Shown piece after piece: positions 38,345 through 46,658 of a stretch of DNA of 64,000 nt. The DNA is from an uncultured Gemmatimonadales bacterium (GTDB taxonomy: Bacteria; Gemmatimonadota; Gemmatimonadetes; Longimicrobiales; RSA9), in the NCBI GenBank assembly GCA_963708135.1, contig OY970192.1, forward strand, positions 4,128,001-4,192,000, read 5' to 3'. The notes beneath the pieces are model-generated. The model worked only from the letters and a program-made list of their open reading frames with translations. It did no database searches and was not told where the DNA came from. The stretch's first letter is position 1. The number at the start of each line of letters is the position of its first letter. The position numbers and the translations under genes were made by a program.

Positions 38345-39445
38345 ATGGCTGGGAACGGCGATGCGGCGCGAGGCTACGCGCCGCACGGCAAGGATACAGG
38401 GATCGTGAAGTCGAAGGGGACGGCGCGGCTGCCGATCCTCGAGGGTGAGGCACTGCCGCTCACGACGCGCAAGCCGCAGTGGCTGCGCGTCCGCTCGCCC
38501 GGCGGGCCGAACTACCTGCGGCTCAAGAGGCTCATGCGAGGTCAGCGCCTCCACTCCGTGTGCGAGGAGGCGGGCTGCCCGAACATCGGCGAATGCTGGG
38601 AGGCGGGAACGGCGACGTTCCTGATCCTTGGGGATGTGTGCACGCGGGCGTGCAAGTACTGCGCGATCGCGCATGGCATGCCGACGGAGCTGGACTGGGA
38701 CGAGCCGAGGCGGGTGGCGGAGGCGGTGGCGGCGCTGGAGCTCGCGCACGTCGTGGTCACGAGCGTGAACCGCGACGAGCTGGCCGACGGCGGCGCGGCA
38801 GTGTTCGCGGCGCTGATCGAGCAGACGCGGGAAGTGCGTCCCGAATGCACGATCGAGGTGCTGATCCCGGACTTCAAGGGGGATGAGGCGGCGCTCGAGA
38901 CGGTGGTTCGCGCGCGGCCGGACATCCTGGCGCACAACCTCGAGACGGTGGAGCGGCTGCACCCCTGGGCGCGGCCGGGTGGACGGTACTGGCGGAGCAT
39001 CTCGCTGCTCGGCGCGGCCAAGCGAATGGACCCGGGCATGCTCACGAAGTCGGGGCTCATGCTGGGGCTGGGCGAGGCGCGGGAGGAGATCCGGCGGGCG
39101 ATGGCGGACCTGCGCAAGGCGTCGGTGGACATCCTGACGGTGGGGCAGTATCTGCGCCCGTCCAGCCACCACGCTCCGGTGGCGCGCTTCGTCACGCCCG
39201 AGGAGTTCGGGGAGTGGAAGCGGGTGGGGGAGGCGGAGCTGGGCTACCGTCACGTGGAGTCGGGGGCGCTGGTCCGCTCGAGCTACCATGCCGAGAGGCA
39301 GGCGCGCACCGTGCAGGCGGGCGGGGTCGGGGAGATCGCCGAGATCCTCGAGGCCGACATCCCCGCGCCCGCCGAGATCGTGAACGCGGCAGAGGCTCGC
39401 GGGCTCGTCCAGCTGGAGGATCGGCGCGAAGCGGCGGGCGGCTAG
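38345..39445 (+). CDS. lipA: Lipoyl synthase (start may be 38405)
   Basis: CEEAGCPNIGEC, CTRACKYC, RSSY. Confidence 0.96.
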   Translation: MAGNGDAARGYAPHGKDTGIVKSKGTARLPILEGEALPLTTRKPQWLRVRSPGGPNYLRLKRLMRGQRLHSVCEEAGCPNIGECWEAGTATFLILGDVCTRACKYCAIAHGMPTELDWDEPRRVAEAVAALELAHVVVTSVNRDELADGGAAVFAALIEQTREVRPECTIEVLIPDFKGDEAALETVVRARPDILAHNLETVERLHPWARPGGRYWRSISLLGAAKRMDPGMLTKSGLMLGLGEAREEIRRAMADLRKASVDILTVGQYLRPSSHHAPVARFVTPEEFGEWKRVGEAELGYRHVESGALVRSSYHAERQARTVQAGGVGEIAEILEADIPAPAEIVNAAEARGLVQLEDRREAAGG

Positions 39446-39597
39446 GCGAAGCATCGAGACGGCCGTTCCCATCCGGAGCGGGCGAGCGGGGAGAGCCGGG
39501 GACGGCTCCCCGCCCTCCCGCTTCTTGTTGGCGGATGCAGTGCTCGAAGAGGGCGAGACGAACCGGCGGCGGGCGCGTCGCCGACAGGGAGTGCCCC

Positions 39598-40683
39598 ATG
39601 GCGGATGCGAAGACCACCACGAAGAAGACGCAGGCGACGGCCAGCGGCAACGGCCGGCAGCTCGGGGGGCTGGATGAGGAGGCCCTGCTGGAGCTGCTCC
39701 GGAAGATGCTGCTCGGGCGCCGATTCGAGGAGAAGAGCGCCGAGTCGTACGCGCTCGGCAAGATCGGCGGGTTCTGCCACCTCTACATCGGGCAGGAGGC
39801 GGTGGCGGTGGGCGCGCTGAGCGTGCTGCGGCCGGACGACTACGTGATCACGGCATACCGTGAGCACGTGCAGGCGCTGGTGAAGGGAGTGCCCCCGAAG
39901 GCGGTGCTGGCGGAGCTGTACGGGCGGGTGGACGGCACATCCCACGGCAAGGGCGGCTCGATGCACATCTACAGCGCCGAGCACAATTTCATGGGCGGGT
40001 GGGGGATCGTGGGCGGGCAGATCCCGATGGCGACCGGCATCGGCTGGGGCATCAAGTACCGGGAGGAGGACCGGGTCTGCCTGTGCTTCCTGGGGGAGGC
40101 GGCGGTGAACCAGGGCGCGTTCCACGAGTCGCTCAACATGGCGGCGCTGTGGAAGCTGCCGGTGATCTACATCGTGGAGAACAACCGCTTCGGGATGGGC
40201 ACGGCCTGGGAGCGGGCATCGTCGCTGTACGACATCGCGCAGAAGGCGCACGCCTACGACATGCCGTCCTCGGTAGCCGACGGCATGGACGTGTTCGACA
40301 TGCGGGCGAAGGTGCAGGAGGCGGTCGGGCGGGCGCGCTCCGACTCGACGCCGACGCTGATCGAGGCGCGCTGCTACCGCTTCATGGGACATTCGATGTC
40401 GGATCCGGTGAGCGGCGTGTACCGGACGAAGCAGGAGGTGGAGGAGGCGAAGAAGAAGGATCCGATCCGGATCTTCATCGACCGGGTGAAGGATGGGGGG
40501 ATGCTGTCGGACGAGACGCTGCAGGGAATCGACGAGGCGGTGAAGCGGGAGGTGGAGGAGGCGGCCGAGTTCGCCGACCAGTCGCCCGAGCCGTCGGCGG
40601 AGGACCTGTACAAGGACGTGTACGCGGAGCTGAACGAGCACGGCCGCCTCTTCTTCGACCGGCAGGACCGGGTGGAGGGCTAG
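39598..40683 (+). CDS. pdhA: Pyruvate dehydrogenase E1 alpha subunit
   Basis: GFCHLYIGQEA, GKGGSMH, GEAAVNQG, YRFMGHSMSDP. Confidence 0.95.
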   Translation: MADAKTTTKKTQATASGNGRQLGGLDEEALLELLRKMLLGRRFEEKSAESYALGKIGGFCHLYIGQEAVAVGALSVLRPDDYVITAYREHVQALVKGVPPKAVLAELYGRVDGTSHGKGGSMHIYSAEHNFMGGWGIVGGQIPMATGIGWGIKYREEDRVCLCFLGEAAVNQGAFHESLNMAALWKLPVIYIVENNRFGMGTAWERASSLYDIAQKAHAYDMPSSVADGMDVFDMRAKVQEAVGRARSDSTPTLIEARCYRFMGHSMSDPVSGVYRTKQEVEEAKKKDPIRIFIDRVKDGGMLSDETLQGIDEAVKREVEEAAEFADQSPEPSAEDLYKDVYAELNEHGRLFFDRQDRVEG

Positions 40684-40686
40684 CCG

Positions 40687-41670
40687 ATGTCCACGATCAC
40701 GTACCGCGAGGCGCTCAACGCCGCGCTGGACGAGGAAATGGCGCGCGATCCCGATGTCTTCCTGATGGGCGAGGAGGTCGGGATGTACAACGGCGCCTAC
40801 AAGGTCTCGAAAGGGCTCCTCGAGAAGTACGGTGAGAGACGGGTGGTAGACACGCCGATCACGGAGCTCGGCTTCACCGGGCTCGGCGTGGGCGCGGCGA
40901 TGGTGGGGCTGCGCCCGGTCATCGAGTTCATGACCTTCAACTTCTCGCTCCTGGCCACCGACCAGGTGTTCAACAGCGCGGCCAAGCTGCACTACATGAC
41001 GGCGGGGCAGTTCAGTTGCCCGATCGTCTTCCGCGGCCCGACCGGCGCCGCGCTGCAGCTCTCCGCCCAGCACTCGCAGGCGCTGGAGTCGATGTACGCG
41101 CACTTCCCCGGCCTGAAGATCGTCACGCCGGCGACCCCGGCGGACGCGAAGGGGCTGCTCAAGGCGGCGATCCGGGACGACGACCCCGTCGCCTTCTTCG
41201 AGGGCGAGCTGCTCTACGCGCTGAAGGGGGAGGTCCCCGATGACGACGACTACGTGGTGCCGCTCGGTGTGGCCGACGTGAAGCGGGAGGGCGGCGACGT
41301 CAGCATCATCACGCACGGCAAGATGGTACATGTGGCGTTGCAGGCCGCGGCGCGGCTCGAGCGCGATGGCGTCTCGGCCGAGGTGCTGGACCTGCGCTCG
41401 CTACGCCCGCTGGACGTGGCGGCGATCCGCGCGACGATCTCCAGGACGAACCGCGCGATCTACCTGGAGGAGGGCTGGCCTTACATGGGCGTGGGCGGCT
41501 CGATCGCGAGCATCATCCAGGAGGAGAGCTTCGACGACCTGGACGCGCCGGTGCTGCGGGTGACCCAGGCCGACGTGCCGATGCCGTACAGCAGGAACCT
41601 GGAGAAGCTGGCGAAGCCGTCGGTGGAGCGGGTGGTGGAGGCGTGTAACAGGGTGATGTACAGGGATTAG
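40687..41670 (+). CDS. pdhB: Pyruvate dehydrogenase E1 beta subunit
   Basis: MGEEV, DTPITE, EFMTFNF, AQHSQ. Confidence 0.95.
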   Translation: MSTITYREALNAALDEEMARDPDVFLMGEEVGMYNGAYKVSKGLLEKYGERRVVDTPITELGFTGLGVGAAMVGLRPVIEFMTFNFSLLATDQVFNSAAKLHYMTAGQFSCPIVFRGPTGAALQLSAQHSQALESMYAHFPGLKIVTPATPADAKGLLKAAIRDDDPVAFFEGELLYALKGEVPDDDDYVVPLGVADVKREGGDVSIITHGKMVHVALQAAARLERDGVSAEVLDLRSLRPLDVAAIRATISRTNRAIYLEEGWPYMGVGGSIASIIQEESFDDLDAPVLRVTQADVPMPYSRNLEKLAKPSVERVVEACNRVMYRD

Positions 41671-41721
41671 GGGATCCTGAATCCCTGGTCCGGCCCGTGG
41701 TCCCCGGAACACGAGGTGAGG

Positions 41722-43149
41722 ATGGCGACGAAGGTCCACATGGAGGCGCTTTCCCCGACCATGGAGGAGGGGCAGCTGGTCCGCTGGCTGAAGCAGGAGG
41801 GGGACCAGGTGGCGGAGGGCGACGTTCTGGCGGAGATCGAGACCGACAAGGCCACCATGGAGCTGGTGGCGCGAGGCGCGGGGGTGCTCCGGAAGCAGCT
41901 GTTGCCGGAGGGCGCGAGCGCGCCCGTGGGCGCGGTGATCGGCGTCGTCGCGGGGGCGGACGAGGACATCTCCAGCATCCTTGCAGAGGCGCCGACGAGC
42001 GCCGGGCAGCCGGCCCATGGCGGGGAGTCGGAGGCGGCGCCGGAATTGGCCGCGGCGGCGGCGGTATCGGCGGCCGGTGAGTCGGAGCGGGACGAGGCGG
42101 CCGCCGGCGTCCAGGCTGCCGTGCAGGCGCCGAGCCGCCCCGCCACACCGACTCCCCCGTCCGCTCCCGCCGGACGTGCATCCACGCCGGCGAGCGGCGG
42201 CGAGGCCACGGGGAACGGGGCAGAGCGCGGCGGCCGGGTAAAGGCTTCGCCGCTCGCGCGGCGACTAGCCGCCGAGGCGGGGCTCGAGTTGAACTCGGTG
42301 CGTGGCACGGGTCCGGGCGGGAGGATCACGAAGCGCGACATCGAGGGCGCGCGCGAGCGGGCGCCGCAGCGCGGGGCGGCCGCGCCCGCGGCGGCGGCAG
42401 CGCGTGGCGCAGCGCCCGCGGCCGCGGCCGCCCCGGCGCTCCGCGAGGCGAGCGAGCGGCCGGAGGTCGAGGAGGTCCCGGTCAGCCAGATGCGGAAGAC
42501 GATCGCGAAGCGGCTCGTCACCTCGATCGGGCCGGTGCCCACCTTCTACCTCACCGTCGAAGTGGACATGGGGCACATGAGCGAGGCGCGGGCGCGGATC
42601 AACGACCGACTGGCGGCGAGCGGCCAGAAGGTCTCCATCAACGACCTCCTGATTCGCGCAACGGCCGAGGCGCTGCGGCGGCACCCCGAGGTGAACGCGG
42701 CCTGGGGCGAGACCGTGATCCGCCGCTACGGCCGCGTGCACATCGGAATGGCGGTGGCGGTCGAGGACGGGCTCATCACACCCGTCATCCGGGATGCCGA
42801 CCGCAAGGGCGTGGCCCAGATCGCCCGGGAGGCGCGCGAGCTGGCGGCGCGGGCGCGCGACCGGAAGCTCACCCCCGAGGAATACACGGGCGCGACCTTC
42901 TCGATCTCGAATCTCGGGATGCTCGACATCGATGAGTTCACCGCGATCATCAACCCGCCCGAGGCTGCCATCCTGGCCGTCGGACGGGTGGAGGAGAAGC
43001 CGGTCGTCGTGGACGGGCAGGTGGTGCCGGGCAAGCGCATGCGCATGACCATGAGCTGCGATCACCGCGTGGTCAACGGCGCCACCGGCGCGCGCTTCCT
43101 CCAGACGCTGCGCGCGTTCCTTGAGGAGCCGACAATGATGCTGGTATAG
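41722..43149 (+). CDS. pdhC: Pyruvate dehydrogenase E2 dihydrolipoamide acetyltransferase
   Basis: Lipoyl motif [22 protein letters not shown]. Confidence 0.95.
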
Positions 43150-43167
43150 GCGAAGCGAGCAGGTCCT

Positions 43168-43463
43168 GGATGCAAGAACCCCCGCCGCCAGCCGAAGCCG
43201 GACGTCGGGGGTTCTTGCCACTGGCGAGGCTCGGGTCCGCTGAGGTTCGGGGCCACGCCGCGAGGCGTGCCCGGATCCCGTGTCTCTCTGCCCAGCACCG
43301 CGCGGTCTGCGGGTGGGGCGCCCCTGGCCGGGGGCAAACGGCTGCGGCCAGTAACCTCGCAGCCGACTCGCCGGGTCCGAACGTCCGACGAGCATGTCTC
43401 GCGAAAAGCGTCCCTTTCGGAGACGACGTCCCTGGCCGCGAAGACCGCCGGCCGTTGACGTCT
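43168..43463 (-). ncRNA. Candidate structured non-coding RNA (~290 nt), family unknown
   Basis: Promoter TTGACG-17-TATCCT (43498-43470), then about 8 consecutive hairpins ending in a UUCG-capped stem; no short ORF. Confidence 0.5.
43172..43218. terminator. Strong hairpin, probably terminating pdhC and/or the minus-strand RNA
   Basis: 13-bp arms GCAAGAACCCCCG/CGGGGGTTCTTGC; on the minus strand the apex is CCGGC-UUCG-GCUGG. Confidence 0.65.
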
Positions 43464-43560
43464 GCGACAAGGATAAGCGTCTTGGCGTGCGCCGTCAAGG
43501 CCTTCTTTCAGGCCCACAAGCCGTTGTTATGAAACAAGATGCTGGACTGGTGGGAAATGT

Positions 43561-43728
43561 TGTGGAAACCTGGAACGGCGGTGGAGCGGCAACATTCCTT
43601 CGCCGTTCGGGTTAGCGGTTTGTAACGATTGGATCCACAGGTTTCTTCAATTTTTCTACAGGTTTTCCACCGCCGTTCGGCCGTTGTCCACGTGGGCCCC
43701 GGGCTTTGTTCACGCGCTGTGTGGAAAA
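43561..43728. promoter_or_regulatory. Remote DnaA-box cluster 2
   Basis: TGTGGAAAC 43561, GGATCCACA 43631, TTTTCTACA 43652, TTTTCCACC 43663, TTGTCCACG 43684, TTGTTCACG 43706, TGTGGAAAA 43720. Confidence 0.65.
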
Positions 43729-43821
43729 TGGGCGGGCGGAGCGGCGGTGGGCCGAGGGCGCGGCTGCCGGACGTCGCGGGGCGATGGCTCCGCAGGTGGC
43801 CCCGGGGGGCGCCGGGAGCGA

Positions 43822-43850
43822 TTGTCCGGGCCTGGGCGGCGTCGTAGTAT
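43822..43850 (+). promoter_or_regulatory. lpdA promoter
   Basis: TTGTCC-17-TAGTAT. Confidence 0.5.
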
Positions 43851-43890
43851 TGGAAGCTACGAGCGAAACACTCCGAGTGAGAGGTGAGGC

Positions 43891-45288
43891 GTGGCGGAGA
43901 ACACCTTCGACCTGATCGTGATCGGGGCGGGGCCGGGCGGTTACGTTGCGGCGATCCGCGCGGCGCAGCTGGGGATGCGGGTGGCGTGCGTGGAGGCGGA
44001 CAAGCTGGGGGGCGTCTGCAACAACGTGGGGTGCATTCCGACGAAGGCGCTGCTGGAAGCGGCAATGTACGCGCGGCGGATTCCGGAGCTGAAGGAGTTC
44101 GGGATCACGGTGGCGGATGTGAAGCTGGACCTGGGGCGGGCGGGCAAGCGGGCGAAGACGGTGGCGGGCCAGGGGTCGAAGGGGGTGGGCTACCTGTTCA
44201 AGAAGAACGGAGTGGAGCCGGTGTCGGGCTGGGCGCGTCTCGTGGGGGGGGGCAAGGTGGAGGTGGAGGGCTCGGAGGGGAAGCGGACGCTGACGGCCAA
44301 GGCGATCATGCTGGCGACGGGGTCACGGCCGAAGTCTTTGCCGATGCTGAAGATCGACGGGCAGCGGGTGTGGAGCTCGGATCAGGCTGTGTTTCCGACG
44401 GAGGCGCCGGGGACGCTGGGGATCATCGGCGCGGGGGCGATCGGAATGGAGTTCGCGGACGTGTACAACGCGTTCGGCACGAAGGTGACGCTGGTGGAGG
44501 CGATGGAGCAGGTGCTTCCGCTGGAGGATGCGGATGCGGCGAAGGTGGTGGAGAAGGCGTTCAAGAAGCGGGGCATCGAGGTGATGACGGGCGCGAGGCT
44601 GGAGAGTGCGGAAGTGGGGAAGCAGGGGGTGAAGCTGGTGGTGAAGACGAAGGGGGGCGAGGAGAAGGCGGTCGAGGTCGAGCGAGTGCTTGTGGCAGTC
44701 GGCCGGGCGCCGATCGTGGAGGATGTGGGGGCGGAGAAGGCGGGCGTGAAGGTGGAGCGGGGCTTCTTCCAGGTGGATGACCAGCTGCGCACGACCGCGG
44801 CGGGGGTCTGGGCGATCGGGGACTGCGCGCGGCCGCCGCTGCTGGCGCACAAGGCGTCGCACGAAGGGATCGCGGTGGTGGAGGCGATCGCGGGCGTCGG
44901 TCACGGGATGGTGGACTACGACAACATCCCGAGCGTGACGTACTGCCATCCGGAGGTGGCGTCGACGGGACTGACGGAGAAGGCGGCGCGGGAGAAGGGG
45001 CTGGACATCGAGGTGGGGGTGTTCCCGTTCAGCGCGAACGGCCGGGCGCGCACGGCGGGGGAGACGGAGGGGTTCGTGAAGGTGATCCGTGAGAAGCGCT
45101 ACAGCGAGATCGTGGGCGCGCACATCGTGGGCCCGCACGCGAGTGAGCTGATCGCCGAGTTCGTGGTGGGACGCGAGCTCGAGACGACGGCGGAGGAGAT
45201 GGACCGGGCGATGCACCCTCATCCGACGCTCTCGGAGGCGGTGGCGCAGGCGGCGCTGGCCTCTCTTGGGCGCCCGATCGACCTGTAG
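43891..45288 (+). CDS. lpdA: Dihydrolipoyl dehydrogenase (E3)
   Basis: GAGPGGY, GGVCNNVGCIPTK, GAGAIGME, HPHPTLSE. Confidence 0.96.
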   Translation: MAENTFDLIVIGAGPGGYVAAIRAAQLGMRVACVEADKLGGVCNNVGCIPTKALLEAAMYARRIPELKEFGITVADVKLDLGRAGKRAKTVAGQGSKGVGYLFKKNGVEPVSGWARLVGGGKVEVEGSEGKRTLTAKAIMLATGSRPKSLPMLKIDGQRVWSSDQAVFPTEAPGTLGIIGAGAIGMEFADVYNAFGTKVTLVEAMEQVLPLEDADAAKVVEKAFKKRGIEVMTGARLESAEVGKQGVKLVVKTKGGEEKAVEVERVLVAVGRAPIVEDVGAEKAGVKVERGFFQVDDQLRTTAAGVWAIGDCARPPLLAHKASHEGIAVVEAIAGVGHGMVDYDNIPSVTYCHPEVASTGLTEKAAREKGLDIEVGVFPFSANGRARTAGETEGFVKVIREKRYSEIVGAHIVGPHASELIAEFVVGRELETTAEEMDRAMHPHPTLSEAVAQAALASLGRPIDL

Positions 45289-45293
45289 CGGCG

Positions 45294-46658
45294 ATGGAGG
45301 CGGTGCCTTTCCTGTCCGCGATTCTGGCGCACGAGGCGCCTGCCGTCGGCGGGTATGCCCGGGGCGAGGTGCGTCCCCGGCCGAAGGGGTGGGCGGCGGT
45401 GGCGGTGGGGGCGGCAGGGCTGGTCACGGCGACGGTGCTCATGCTGCGGGATGCCGCCCCGTTCGCGACGATGTACTACGTGTTCGCGTGGTACAGCACG
45501 CTGCTGGCGCTGTATGGCGTGCTGGCACTGGTGTCGGGCCGGTCGCCGGCGCTGCGGCGGCCGGCGTCGCTGGCGACGATGCTCGGCTGGTCGGTCGTGG
45601 TGTGGCTGTTCTTCGAGCTGCTGAATCTGCGGCTGCGGGATTGGTACTACGTGTTCGTGCCGAGGGAAGGGGCGGTGCGCTGGGTCTACATTGCCGTCTC
45701 CTTCGCGACGGTCCTGCCGGCGGTGTTCGGCGCCGAGGCGCTGCTGGAGGGATTGGGCGTGGCGGAGCGGGCGCGCTGGCCGCGGCTCCGTGTGACGCCG
45801 CGGCTGCTGCGGGGGGTCCGCGCGGCCGGCGCGCTGGCGCTGGTTCTGCCGCTTCTCTGGCCGCGCTGGTTCTTTCCGCTGGTGTGGGGCTCGGCCACGC
45901 TGTTGCTGGAGCCATCGGTGTACCGGCGGGACCCGGCGCGCTCGCTGCTGCACGACCTGGAGGAGGGCCGACCCGGGCGGATGCTGCGCATCCTGCTCGG
46001 CGGAGCCGCGATCGGATTCCTCTGGGAGATGTTCAACATCCGTGCGCGTGGGAAGTGGATCTACACGGTTCCCGGCTTCGACGACGGCAAGCTGTTCGAG
46101 ATGCCGGTGCTGGGGTTCTTCGGGTTTCCGCCGTTCGCGGTGGACTGCTATGTGATGTGGCAGCTGCTGGTCGTGCAGGGGCTCGCGGTGCCGCTCGCGG
46201 GGCGCCCGCTGCCGGCGCGCCGGCTGAAGCGCTGGGGCAGCGCGCTGGGGGCGGTGGCGTTCAGCGCCGTGGTCCTGCGGGGGATGGAGGCGCGCACGAT
46301 CTCCTCGGTCGCGCCGCGACTCTCGGACGTGCCCGGGATCCCGGCGCCGGCGCTCCGCGACGCCGGCTACGACGTTTTCTCGCTCAGCTCCGCGTCACCG
46401 GCGGCGGTGGCGCTGGCCACGGGCGCGAGCCCGGAGGAGTCGGCGCGCTGGGTGTCGGCGGCGCGGCTGGTCACCCTGCGGGGGATCGGCACGCGCAACG
46501 CGCGCGACCTGATGGCGGTAGGGATCCAGTCGCCCGGCAGGCTGGCGGCCGCGGACCCGGCGTGGCTCGCCCGCGCGCTGCGCGCGCGGACCGGGCGGCC
46601 GGTGGTGGATGCGCGGCTGCGCGTCTGGATCCGCGCCGCGCGCGCGGCCACTCCGTAG
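45294..46658 (+). CDS. Multi-pass membrane protein with C-terminal helix-hairpin-helix (DUF4332-like) domain
   Basis: Several TM helices, WEMFN..A.GKWIY...LFEMPVLGFFGFPPF, C-terminal LRGIG. Confidence 0.7.
   Translation: MEAVPFLSAILAHEAPAVGGYARGEVRPRPKGWAAVAVGAAGLVTATVLMLRDAAPFATMYYVFAWYSTLLALYGVLALVSGRSPALRRPASLATMLGWSVVVWLFFELLNLRLRDWYYVFVPREGAVRWVYIAVSFATVLPAVFGAEALLEGLGVAERARWPRLRVTPRLLRGVRAAGALALVLPLLWPRWFFPLVWGSATLLLEPSVYRRDPARSLLHDLEEGRPGRMLRILLGGAAIGFLWEMFNIRARGKWIYTVPGFDDGKLFEMPVLGFFGFPPFAVDCYVMWQLLVVQGLAVPLAGRPLPARRLKRWGSALGAVAFSAVVLRGMEARTISSVAPRLSDVPGIPAPALRDAGYDVFSLSSASPAAVALATGASPEESARWVSAARLVTLRGIGTRNARDLMAVGIQSPGRLAAADPAWLARALRARTGRPVVDARLRVWIRAARAATP

Follow-up and report, generated by a model that had tools for sequence, protein, structure and literature searches.

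Candidate non-coding RNA family with three covarying long-range pairings in Gemmatimonadota

A structured RNA gene between pdhC and lpdA

The minus strand of positions 43168 to 43467 of the window (the whole stretch of 64,000 nucleotides analysed) very probably holds an independently transcribed gene for a compact non-coding RNA of about 295 nt, which represents an uncatalogued family and would act in trans via its fold. Members of this family, present in one to five copies per genome where they occur, were found in the class holding the Gemmatimonadales and Longimicrobiales. Their alignments showed selection on the sequence to keep one compact fold, which includes three tertiary pairings. What is new is an RNA family without detectable relative; orphan structured non-coding RNAs as a category are already known. 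The gene, termed copy A, lies in the 741-nt gap between pdhC and lpdA, in the following setting:

39214-40683, plus strand: pdhA, upstream in the pdh operon
40687-41670, plus strand: pdhB, pdh operon
41716-43149, plus strand: pdhC (E2), with Pfam domains 2-oxoacid_dh, E3_binding and Biotin_lipoyl; convergent with the RNA and outside it
43168-43467, minus strand: RNA gene copy A, covariance-model match (237.9 bits with model R1, 230.3 bits with model R2; alignments A1, A2 and A6)
43498-43470, minus strand: sigma70-type promoter (-35 TTGACG, 43498-43493; 17-nt spacer; -10 TATCCT, 43475-43470)
43499-43541, minus strand: promoter-upstream region of copy A, an A-rich stretch beside the -35 hexamer plus a degenerate subfamily-1 dyad
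43891-45288, plus strand: lpdA (E3), with Pfam domains Pyr_redox_2 and Pyr_redox_dim; divergent from the RNA promoter and outside the RNA

A near-consensus sigma70 promoter on the minus strand had been noticed in an earlier note, made from the letters of the sequence, and was found again at 43498-43470, where TTGACG-17-TATCCT scored 9/12 in a consensus scan; its hexamers recur before the paralogues and orthologues. Two promoter-like sites were counted in the region, whereas 50 shuffles averaged 0.0. Since the -10 hexamer ends 2-3 nt ahead of model position 1 in 36 distinct subfamily-1 upstream regions, transcription likely starts at RNA position 5/6 (window 43463/43462; RNA position p is window coordinate 43468 - p), in agreement with the start near 43463 suggested earlier. 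The start, the 3' end and the transcription of the RNA are predictions, the mature RNA of copy A likely extending from about 43463/43462 to about 43170 on the minus strand. A search for sequencing runs listed four, all of DNA, from soil and rhizosphere metagenomes. Its end lies about 19-24 nt past the pdhC stop codon (43149), with zero overlap with the pdh coding sequence. By our own reading of the alignment of 36 promoters, copy A keeps the upstream dyad only partly. As this dyad is degenerate and no U run follows the terminal hairpin, copy A could be weakly expressed.

Between the RNA promoter and lpdA, a lower-GC stretch with nested inverted repeats was noticed (43545-43690, plus strand), comprising a 13-nt perfect inverted repeat (43573-43585 / 43666-43678) and a 19-nt inverted pair with 79% complementarity (43554-43572 / 43638-43656). 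Folding of this stretch gave z = -3.15 for the plus strand (0/200 shuffles) and z = -1.65 for the minus strand. Its role may be that of an lpdA leader or of an operator common to the divergent promoters; a DNA search of 41 relatives returned no match for it. Directly after lpdA, a 454-aa ORF (45294-46658, plus strand) displayed weak C-terminal matches to Cdd1 and DUF4332, both helix-hairpin-helix-like and below cut-off.

Copies and distribution

BLAST of the pdhC-lpdA gap against its own genome matched 43169-43476 twice more, at about 74.5% identity, and a DNA search retrieved the stretch in 14 of 41 relatives. Twelve distinct copies could be aligned over about 300 nt, in which the -35 and -10 hexamers were kept and the spacer was not. 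A covariance model (R1) was built from these 12 aligned copies, followed by a second, broader model (R2). Five copies are present in the genome of the window (contig C1):

Copy A: window 43168-43467, minus strand
Copy B: C1:5366443-5366741
Copy C: C1:5256475-5256773
Copy D: C1:2165669-2165971
Copy E: C1:1437474-1437768

R1 gave them 237.9, 254.9 (twice), 98 and 90.6 bits, and R2 gave 230-246 and 162-164 bits. The paralogues are 70-75% identical, except for the pair B/C, whose transcribed part is identical. As the block common to B and C (98% identity) is no longer than about 540 bp, the RNA gene and its promoter alone seem to have been duplicated, or converted, recently.

Of the 73 genomes examined from the same family, R1 retrieved the RNA in 58, in up to five full-length copies per genome, a count that takes in the unpublished genomes G015, G016, G019 and G076 (all matched) and becomes 54 of 69 when these are left aside. 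Over the order, R1 matched 75 of 151 genomes (families f1, 37/48; f2, 34/63; f3, 3/39), each positive f2 genome containing exactly one copy. A phylum-wide sample searched with R2 yielded 24 of 151 genomes (f2, 9/16; f5, 10/31; f4, 3/72, only one of these being strong), and none of the 28 genomes of families f6 to f12 was matched. Hence, the RNA occurred in two further families of the order and in another order of the class, and it was found nowhere outside one class among the genomes searched. The distribution is widespread but patchy and, given the 3/72 of f4, the RNA is not essential to the lineage.

A loose DNA pattern with two gaps, run over all species genomes, gave at least 119 stretches, mostly chance matches, 80 of which were listed. 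Among the matches listed, R1 confirmed 15 of 80 loci, all 15 labelled as Gemmatimonadaceae, Gemmatimonas, Gemmatimonadales, Gemmatimonadetes/-ota or Longimicrobiales, and none of the 64 listed loci with other labels; one further listed locus, labelled Gemmatimonadales and cut by a contig end, had no R1 match. In several relatives (L055, G012:C2:1336000-1346000; L025; L033; L041; L042), two to three tandem subfamily-1 copies with their own promoters were seen within 0.3-1.6 kb.

Hairpins and terminal hairpin

The 296 nt downstream of the promoter folded at -166.3 kcal/mol on the minus strand (z = -3.55; 0/200 shuffles as stable) and with z = -2.57 on the plus strand of the same stretch (1/200 shuffles). 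The proposed structure consists of nine to ten helices, every pair of which is canonical in copy A:

43425-43462 (RNA 6-43), minus strand: hairpin P1, with outer GACGUC:GACGUC, inner GGCCG:CGGCC and loop GCGGUCU (43442-43448)
43396-43424 (RNA 44-72), minus strand: hairpin P2, with near-invariant loop GGGACGC
43366-43393 (RNA 75-102), minus strand: hairpin P3, with loop GUUCGG (43377-43382)
43339-43365 (RNA 103-129), minus strand: hairpin P4, with conserved 11-nt loop AGGUUACUGGC containing ACUGGC (43347-43352); 95-98% paired
43320-43335 (RNA 133-148), minus strand: hairpin P5, with variable loop; 77.6% paired
43298-43312 (RNA 156-170), minus strand: hairpin P6, with 7-nt loop AGACCGC (43302-43308); 92-95% paired
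43226-43286, minus strand: 3' domain, in which P8/P9 (RNA 182-196 with 229-242) enclose P7 and single-stranded CCGAAC
43251-43271 (RNA 197-217), minus strand: hairpin P7; 90.8-93.8% paired
43173-43217 (RNA 251-295), minus strand: terminal hairpin T, with C(UUCG)G cap and 3' arm GGGGGUUCUUG, then CAUCC; 90.5% and 91.6% paired

Eight hairpins had been read from the letters before (43425-43462, 43396-43424, 43367-43392, 43339-43365, 43320-43335, 43290-43319, 43246-43275 and 43172-43218), and each of them corresponds to one helix of this structure (P1 to P7 and T, respectively). P4 was paired in 95-98% and the outer part of P2 in 89.2%, with compensatory change in 7/7 pairs of the latter; P1a (81.5%) and P1b (78.2%) were counted in alignment A6, which is fitted to these helices. 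P8, P9, P1b and P5 are only moderately supported, and P5, P8 (68.7-84.4% paired) and P9 (70.9%) must be considered tentative. For 72% of 53 sequences, the minimum-energy fold had a helix of at least 4 bp closing the 3' domain; closing pairs averaged 6.3, versus 2.9 in shuffles. An additional helix P6a (RNA 151-154:174-177), paired in 38%, was dropped.

Hairpin T is taken as the terminator of the RNA. The stem capped by C(UUCG)G that had been described there is indeed present, and its UUCG loop recurs in most subfamily-1 copies. Orthologues of family f2 possess the same terminal hairpin, followed by a clean U run. The U-rich part of copy A lies within the 3' arm, so that its U run is interrupted, and a simple terminator scan made no call at this hairpin because of the absence of a T run. 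Being palindromic and starting 24 nt after the pdhC stop codon, hairpin T may also end pdh transcripts. A switch between this terminator and 5' GACGUC, as considered in the earlier note, did not hold up, as the inner-terminator GACGU is present in only about four of the 12 aligned copies (our own reading). The assignment to the minus strand, formerly argued from G-U wobbles, was borne out by a test over all paired cells (808 G.U and U.G versus 356 A.C and C.A), with which the orientations of promoter and terminator agree.

Long-range pairings and covariation

Three long-range pairings involve the hairpin loops. A 7-bp kissing loop (KL) joins GCGGUCU of the P1 loop (L1) to AGACCGC of the P6 loop (L6), GUUCGG of the P3 loop pairs with CCGAAC (PK3; RNA 218-223, 43245-43250) and ACUGGC of the P4 loop pairs with GCCAGU (PK4; RNA 243-248, 43220-43225). 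An unbiased scan of all column pairs of the family alignment recovered KL, PK3 and PK4, as well as P2, P3, P4, P6, P7 and T. The consensus fold obtained when all 74 sequences were aligned globally with MAFFT was poor, and model-based alignments were used instead. In alignment A2, whose 62 distinct rows were fitted to R1 (a model with KL and with neither PK3 nor PK4), KL was paired in 89.3%, with two positions alternating (G-C 44 / A-U 14 and U-A 30 / C-G 28), PK3 in 92.3% and PK4 in 96.6%, the first pair of the latter being A-U in 33 and G-C in 20 rows. Overall, 33 sequences have A-U and 62 have G-C at this first pair of PK4, which flips between the subfamilies.

Alignment A6, with 103 distinct rows representing two orders, was fitted to R2, a model holding none of the three long-range pairings. 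Here, 85.3% of the pair cells were canonical, compared with 66.2% in shuffles (0/500 reaching 85.3%) and 35-44% with slid partners, and compensatory change was seen in 102 of 105 pairs. KL, PK3 and PK4 were paired in 79.6%, 88.0% and 93.3%, respectively; P4, P7, P6, T, P2 and P3 in 88-95%; P1a and P1b in 78-82%; and P5, P8 and P9 in 69-78%. Counting in alignments fitted to covariance models favours the modelled helices, and related sequences inflate shuffle statistics; the fairer tests are the slid-partner control and the pseudoknots that the models do not contain, which were nonetheless paired in 88-97% (PK3 and PK4). The main reading of the earlier note, a standalone, promoter-driven structured RNA of an uncatalogued family, stands in view of the paralogues, the orthologues, the covariation and the empty Rfam searches.

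Subfamilies, promoters and gene neighbours

The family consists of two paralogous subfamilies, each with its own conserved motif upstream of the promoter. Subfamily 1 (copies A, B and C) is characterized by P4 loop GAGGUNACUGGCC and 3' GCCAGU, and subfamily 2 (copies D and E and the single copies of f2, f3 and f5) by P4 loop GRGGUCGCUGG and 3' GCCAGC; this difference in P4 loop and 3' strand is itself the PK4 covariation. Among 36 distinct promoters, the subfamily-1 consensus was CTTGACc-N17-TAtc.T with a variable spacer sequence, preceded by an A-rich stretch and a dyad of about 30 bp (gTAAc-N4-tTG-N5-cAA-N3-TTAc), a putative site for a dimeric factor. Subfamily-2 promoters (16 distinct upstream regions) carry two CCGAA direct repeats abutting a weaker -35 hexamer, which may represent a site for an activator of the response-regulator type.

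A motif resembling the subfamily-1 dyad was noticed in an IS element of about 1.33 kb, encoding a transposase of 389 aa (DDE_Tnp_1 and DUF4372) and present in the genome of the window in six full and two partial copies with more than 99% identity (C1:1715306-1716632 and seven more, e.g., C1:2369310, 5046962, 5139704, 4753880 and 1817457). Just upstream of the transposase promoter lies GTAAC-N17-GTTAC with inner TGCTACAT, close to the dyad of copies B and C. This likeness may reflect a common factor-binding site or coincidence.

Synteny across families is seen at the subfamily-2 locus: at 10 of the 30 loci examined, copy E among them, the RNA follows the gene for a 2-oxoacid dehydrogenase E2 and/or lipB on the same strand, often convergent with rnhA and beside carA. 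This order, i.e., E2 and/or lipB, the RNA on the same strand, convergent rnhA and then carA, was seen in two families of the order, at loci L052, L063, L065, L067, L072, L074, L075, L076, L081 and L083. In one f2 genus, the RNA is located after RNase G-rplU-rpmA instead. Copies B, C and D have unrelated neighbours, and copy A adjoins a second E2 gene, pdhC, on the opposite strand, which may be chance and constitutes a weak lead. As the other copies have unrelated neighbours, the placement of the RNA beside pdh is incidental. More generally, the RNA lies repeatedly beside lipoate-dependent 2-oxoacid dehydrogenase genes, copy A being placed after pdhC and the ancestral copy after E2/lipB; as a further, weak lead, it may be functionally tied to those complexes.

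Comparison with catalogued RNA classes

A search of window 42500-44500 against the covariance models of Rfam 15 (E<=10) gave three matches of 10.9-14.7 bits, none of them within 43168-43498, and ten divergent-copy loci (E<=1) gave only two sub-threshold chance matches. One of these two, to RF02424 (22.4 bits, cut-off 70), touches the terminator of copy E. The earlier note had seen no hallmarks of tmRNA, RNase P RNA, SRP RNA and tRNA; the genome contains its matches to RNase P RNA (C1:3382505-3382908, 257.7 bits), tmRNA (C1:1854512-1854879, 166 bits) and, weakly, small SRP RNA (C1:953877-953973, 32.9 bits, cut-off 40) elsewhere, and ARAGORN detected neither tRNA nor tmRNA in 42500-44500. RF00013, the 6S RNA model, gave no match over cut-off in 41 genomes of the order, the own genome among them, with a single sub-threshold match in the unpublished genome G026. 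It also fails in nine of 14 control genomes, so that little weight can be given to its lack of a match here. Current models cover the housekeeping RNAs of this lineage poorly (6S RNA, 0/41; small SRP RNA, 32.9 bits versus cut-off 40).

A protein-coding reading was rejected, as 85 of 89 indel events relative to copy A were not multiples of 3, and a small ORF likewise, as no frame is open throughout the copies; the earlier failure to see a short ORF is in line with this. A riboswitch or leader was rejected too, the next ORF being convergent in 10 of 16 subfamily-1 cases of other genomes (our own reading of the ORF table); in the window, pdhC is convergent, and the neighbours of subfamily-1 loci in other genomes are unrelated. 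A sponge of the CsrB/Rsm type was discarded because no two loops are alike and three take part in internal pairings. The gene does possess the architecture of an sRNA gene with sigma70 promoter and intrinsic terminator, promoter and hairpin being conserved and a U run following in f2.

Listings of the Gemmatimonadota literature yielded no description of such an RNA and no study of non-coding RNAs of the phylum. Nothing relevant appeared by title among Gemmatirosa transcriptome publications, and a term search within a Gemmatimonas transcriptome paper (PMC9862903) met no mention of non-coding, sRNA or intergenic.

Proposed function and alternative explanations

KL, PK3 and PK4 would tie the 5' and 3' halves of the RNA into one globular fold, and it is through this three-dimensional fold that the RNA would act in trans, and not by antisense pairing with pdh. 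The invariant unpaired elements left, namely GGGACGC in the loop of P2, GAGG in that of P4 and a purine-rich strand ahead of P8, form a candidate surface for binding of a protein or ligand. To judge from this anatomy, the RNA would most likely be the RNA part or the binding partner of a protein, in a regulatory or scaffold ribonucleoprotein, and its paralogues are probably switched on by different transcription factors. When the possible mechanisms are roughly split, a protein partner or ribonucleoprotein would have about an even chance; binding of a small ligand would be far less likely, catalysis, self-assembly via the kissing loop and base pairing would each be somewhat less likely still, and a 6S-like role would be the least likely.

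A bolder reading, that the RNA is specific to Gemmatimonadota and either founds a catalytic or self-assembling class of its own or forms the core of a novel ribonucleoprotein machine, appears unlikely. The three covarying loop pairings would then shape a pocket organised in advance; or else the L1/L6 kissing loop, which is palindromic (GGCC in copies B and C), would join molecules into oligomers. Comparable RNA-only assemblies have been described recently.

Several more conventional explanations were weighed against an RNA acting in trans through its fold. Nearly all conserved loops are used in internal pairings, which argues against a multi-site protein sponge as well as against an sRNA that regulates mRNAs in trans by base pairing through a conserved single-stranded segment. 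The own promoter and terminator, the paralogues and the regulated promoters are typical of the latter class, but the RNA is three times the usual size and, with nearly every conserved loop in a covarying internal pairing, retains little free seed, which makes this explanation distinctly improbable. About as improbable is a replacement of 6S RNA (or an RNA like Ms1), which would be abundant, bind RNA polymerase and tune transcription, with paralogues comparable to 6S-1/6S-2. The strong, regulated-looking promoters, the paralogues and the lack of an RF00013 match over cut-off in 41 genomes of the order, the own one included, speak for it, but the 6S model fails in controls too (9/14), the RNA was not found in 69 of 72 f4 genomes, and a long rod with a central open bubble is lacking; instead, many hairpins and three pseudoknots make up a globule in which the 5' end is free, the 3' end is a terminator and the two do not pair with each other.

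The earlier note had named an antisense or attenuated antisense RNA to pdhC among its options, and a cis-acting antisense or attenuator RNA controlling the pdh operon would be consistent with the position of copy A, which is flanked by pdhC and lpdA, runs opposite to them and has its hairpin starting 24 nt past the pdhC stop codon. Another E2 gene or lipB also lies just upstream of copy E and of the only copy in many relatives (10/30 loci). This claim had to be abandoned, and such control is very improbable, since there is no overlap with pdh coding sequence, the RNAs linked to E2/lipB are on the same strand and not antisense, and selection acts on the RNA's own fold. Moreover, copies B, C and D and 23 subfamily-1 loci of other genomes have unrelated neighbours, none of the 37 ORFs flanking the latter containing an E2 or E3 domain. 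Finally, several copies per genome, the B/C block of about 540 bp at 98% identity and a GC-rich, palindrome-rich sequence could suggest a repetitive or mobile element (REP or MITE), or a riboswitch or leader, instead of an RNA gene. This can practically be dismissed: the five copies, apart from B/C, are 70-75% identical and yet keep their pairs by compensatory change, terminal inverted repeats and target duplications were not seen in a non-systematic look, and the synteny of subfamily 2 is kept across families, with downstream genes mostly convergent.

Relation to known structured RNAs

To our knowledge, large bacterial RNAs shaped by several conserved tertiary pairings are rare. Those with known roles are mostly ribozymes, riboswitches or the cores of ribonucleoprotein machines. 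Gemmatimonadota is a little-studied phylum that is abundant in soils. With more than 100 natural variants aligned, an architecture with three pseudoknots and up to five apparently differently regulated paralogues per genome, the family presents a new fold for structural work and a way into the study of regulation in Gemmatimonadota.

The raiA motif RNA is an orphan structured non-coding RNA of Firmicutes and Actinobacteria. It shares with the RNA described here a size of a few hundred nt, an own promoter and terminator, hairpins and pseudoknots, restriction to a lineage and an orphan function, whereas the present RNA belongs to a different phylum, is multi-copy, is divided into two subfamilies and has three loop-mediated long-range pairings of its own. 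No family of Rfam 15, raiA included, matched it. OLE, ROOL and GOLLD are 'ornate' large bacterial RNAs. Similarly, these non-ribosomal RNAs possess elaborate conserved tertiary pairings, with kissing loops that are possibly intermolecular. In contrast to them, the present RNA is half their size or less, has no link to phages or to the gene partners of those RNAs, and has no Rfam match. Like 6S RNA and Ms1, it is stand-alone, probably abundant and accompanied by paralogues, in a lineage without detectable 6S RNA; unlike these, it lacks the architecture of a rod with a bubble and is not universal in the phylum. Lastly, it resembles the protein-sponge RNAs RsmY/RsmZ and CsrB/CsrC in having paralogous RNA genes behind promoters with a conserved upstream operator (dyad or direct repeats), but in place of repeated GGA loops, each of its conserved loops is different and internally paired.
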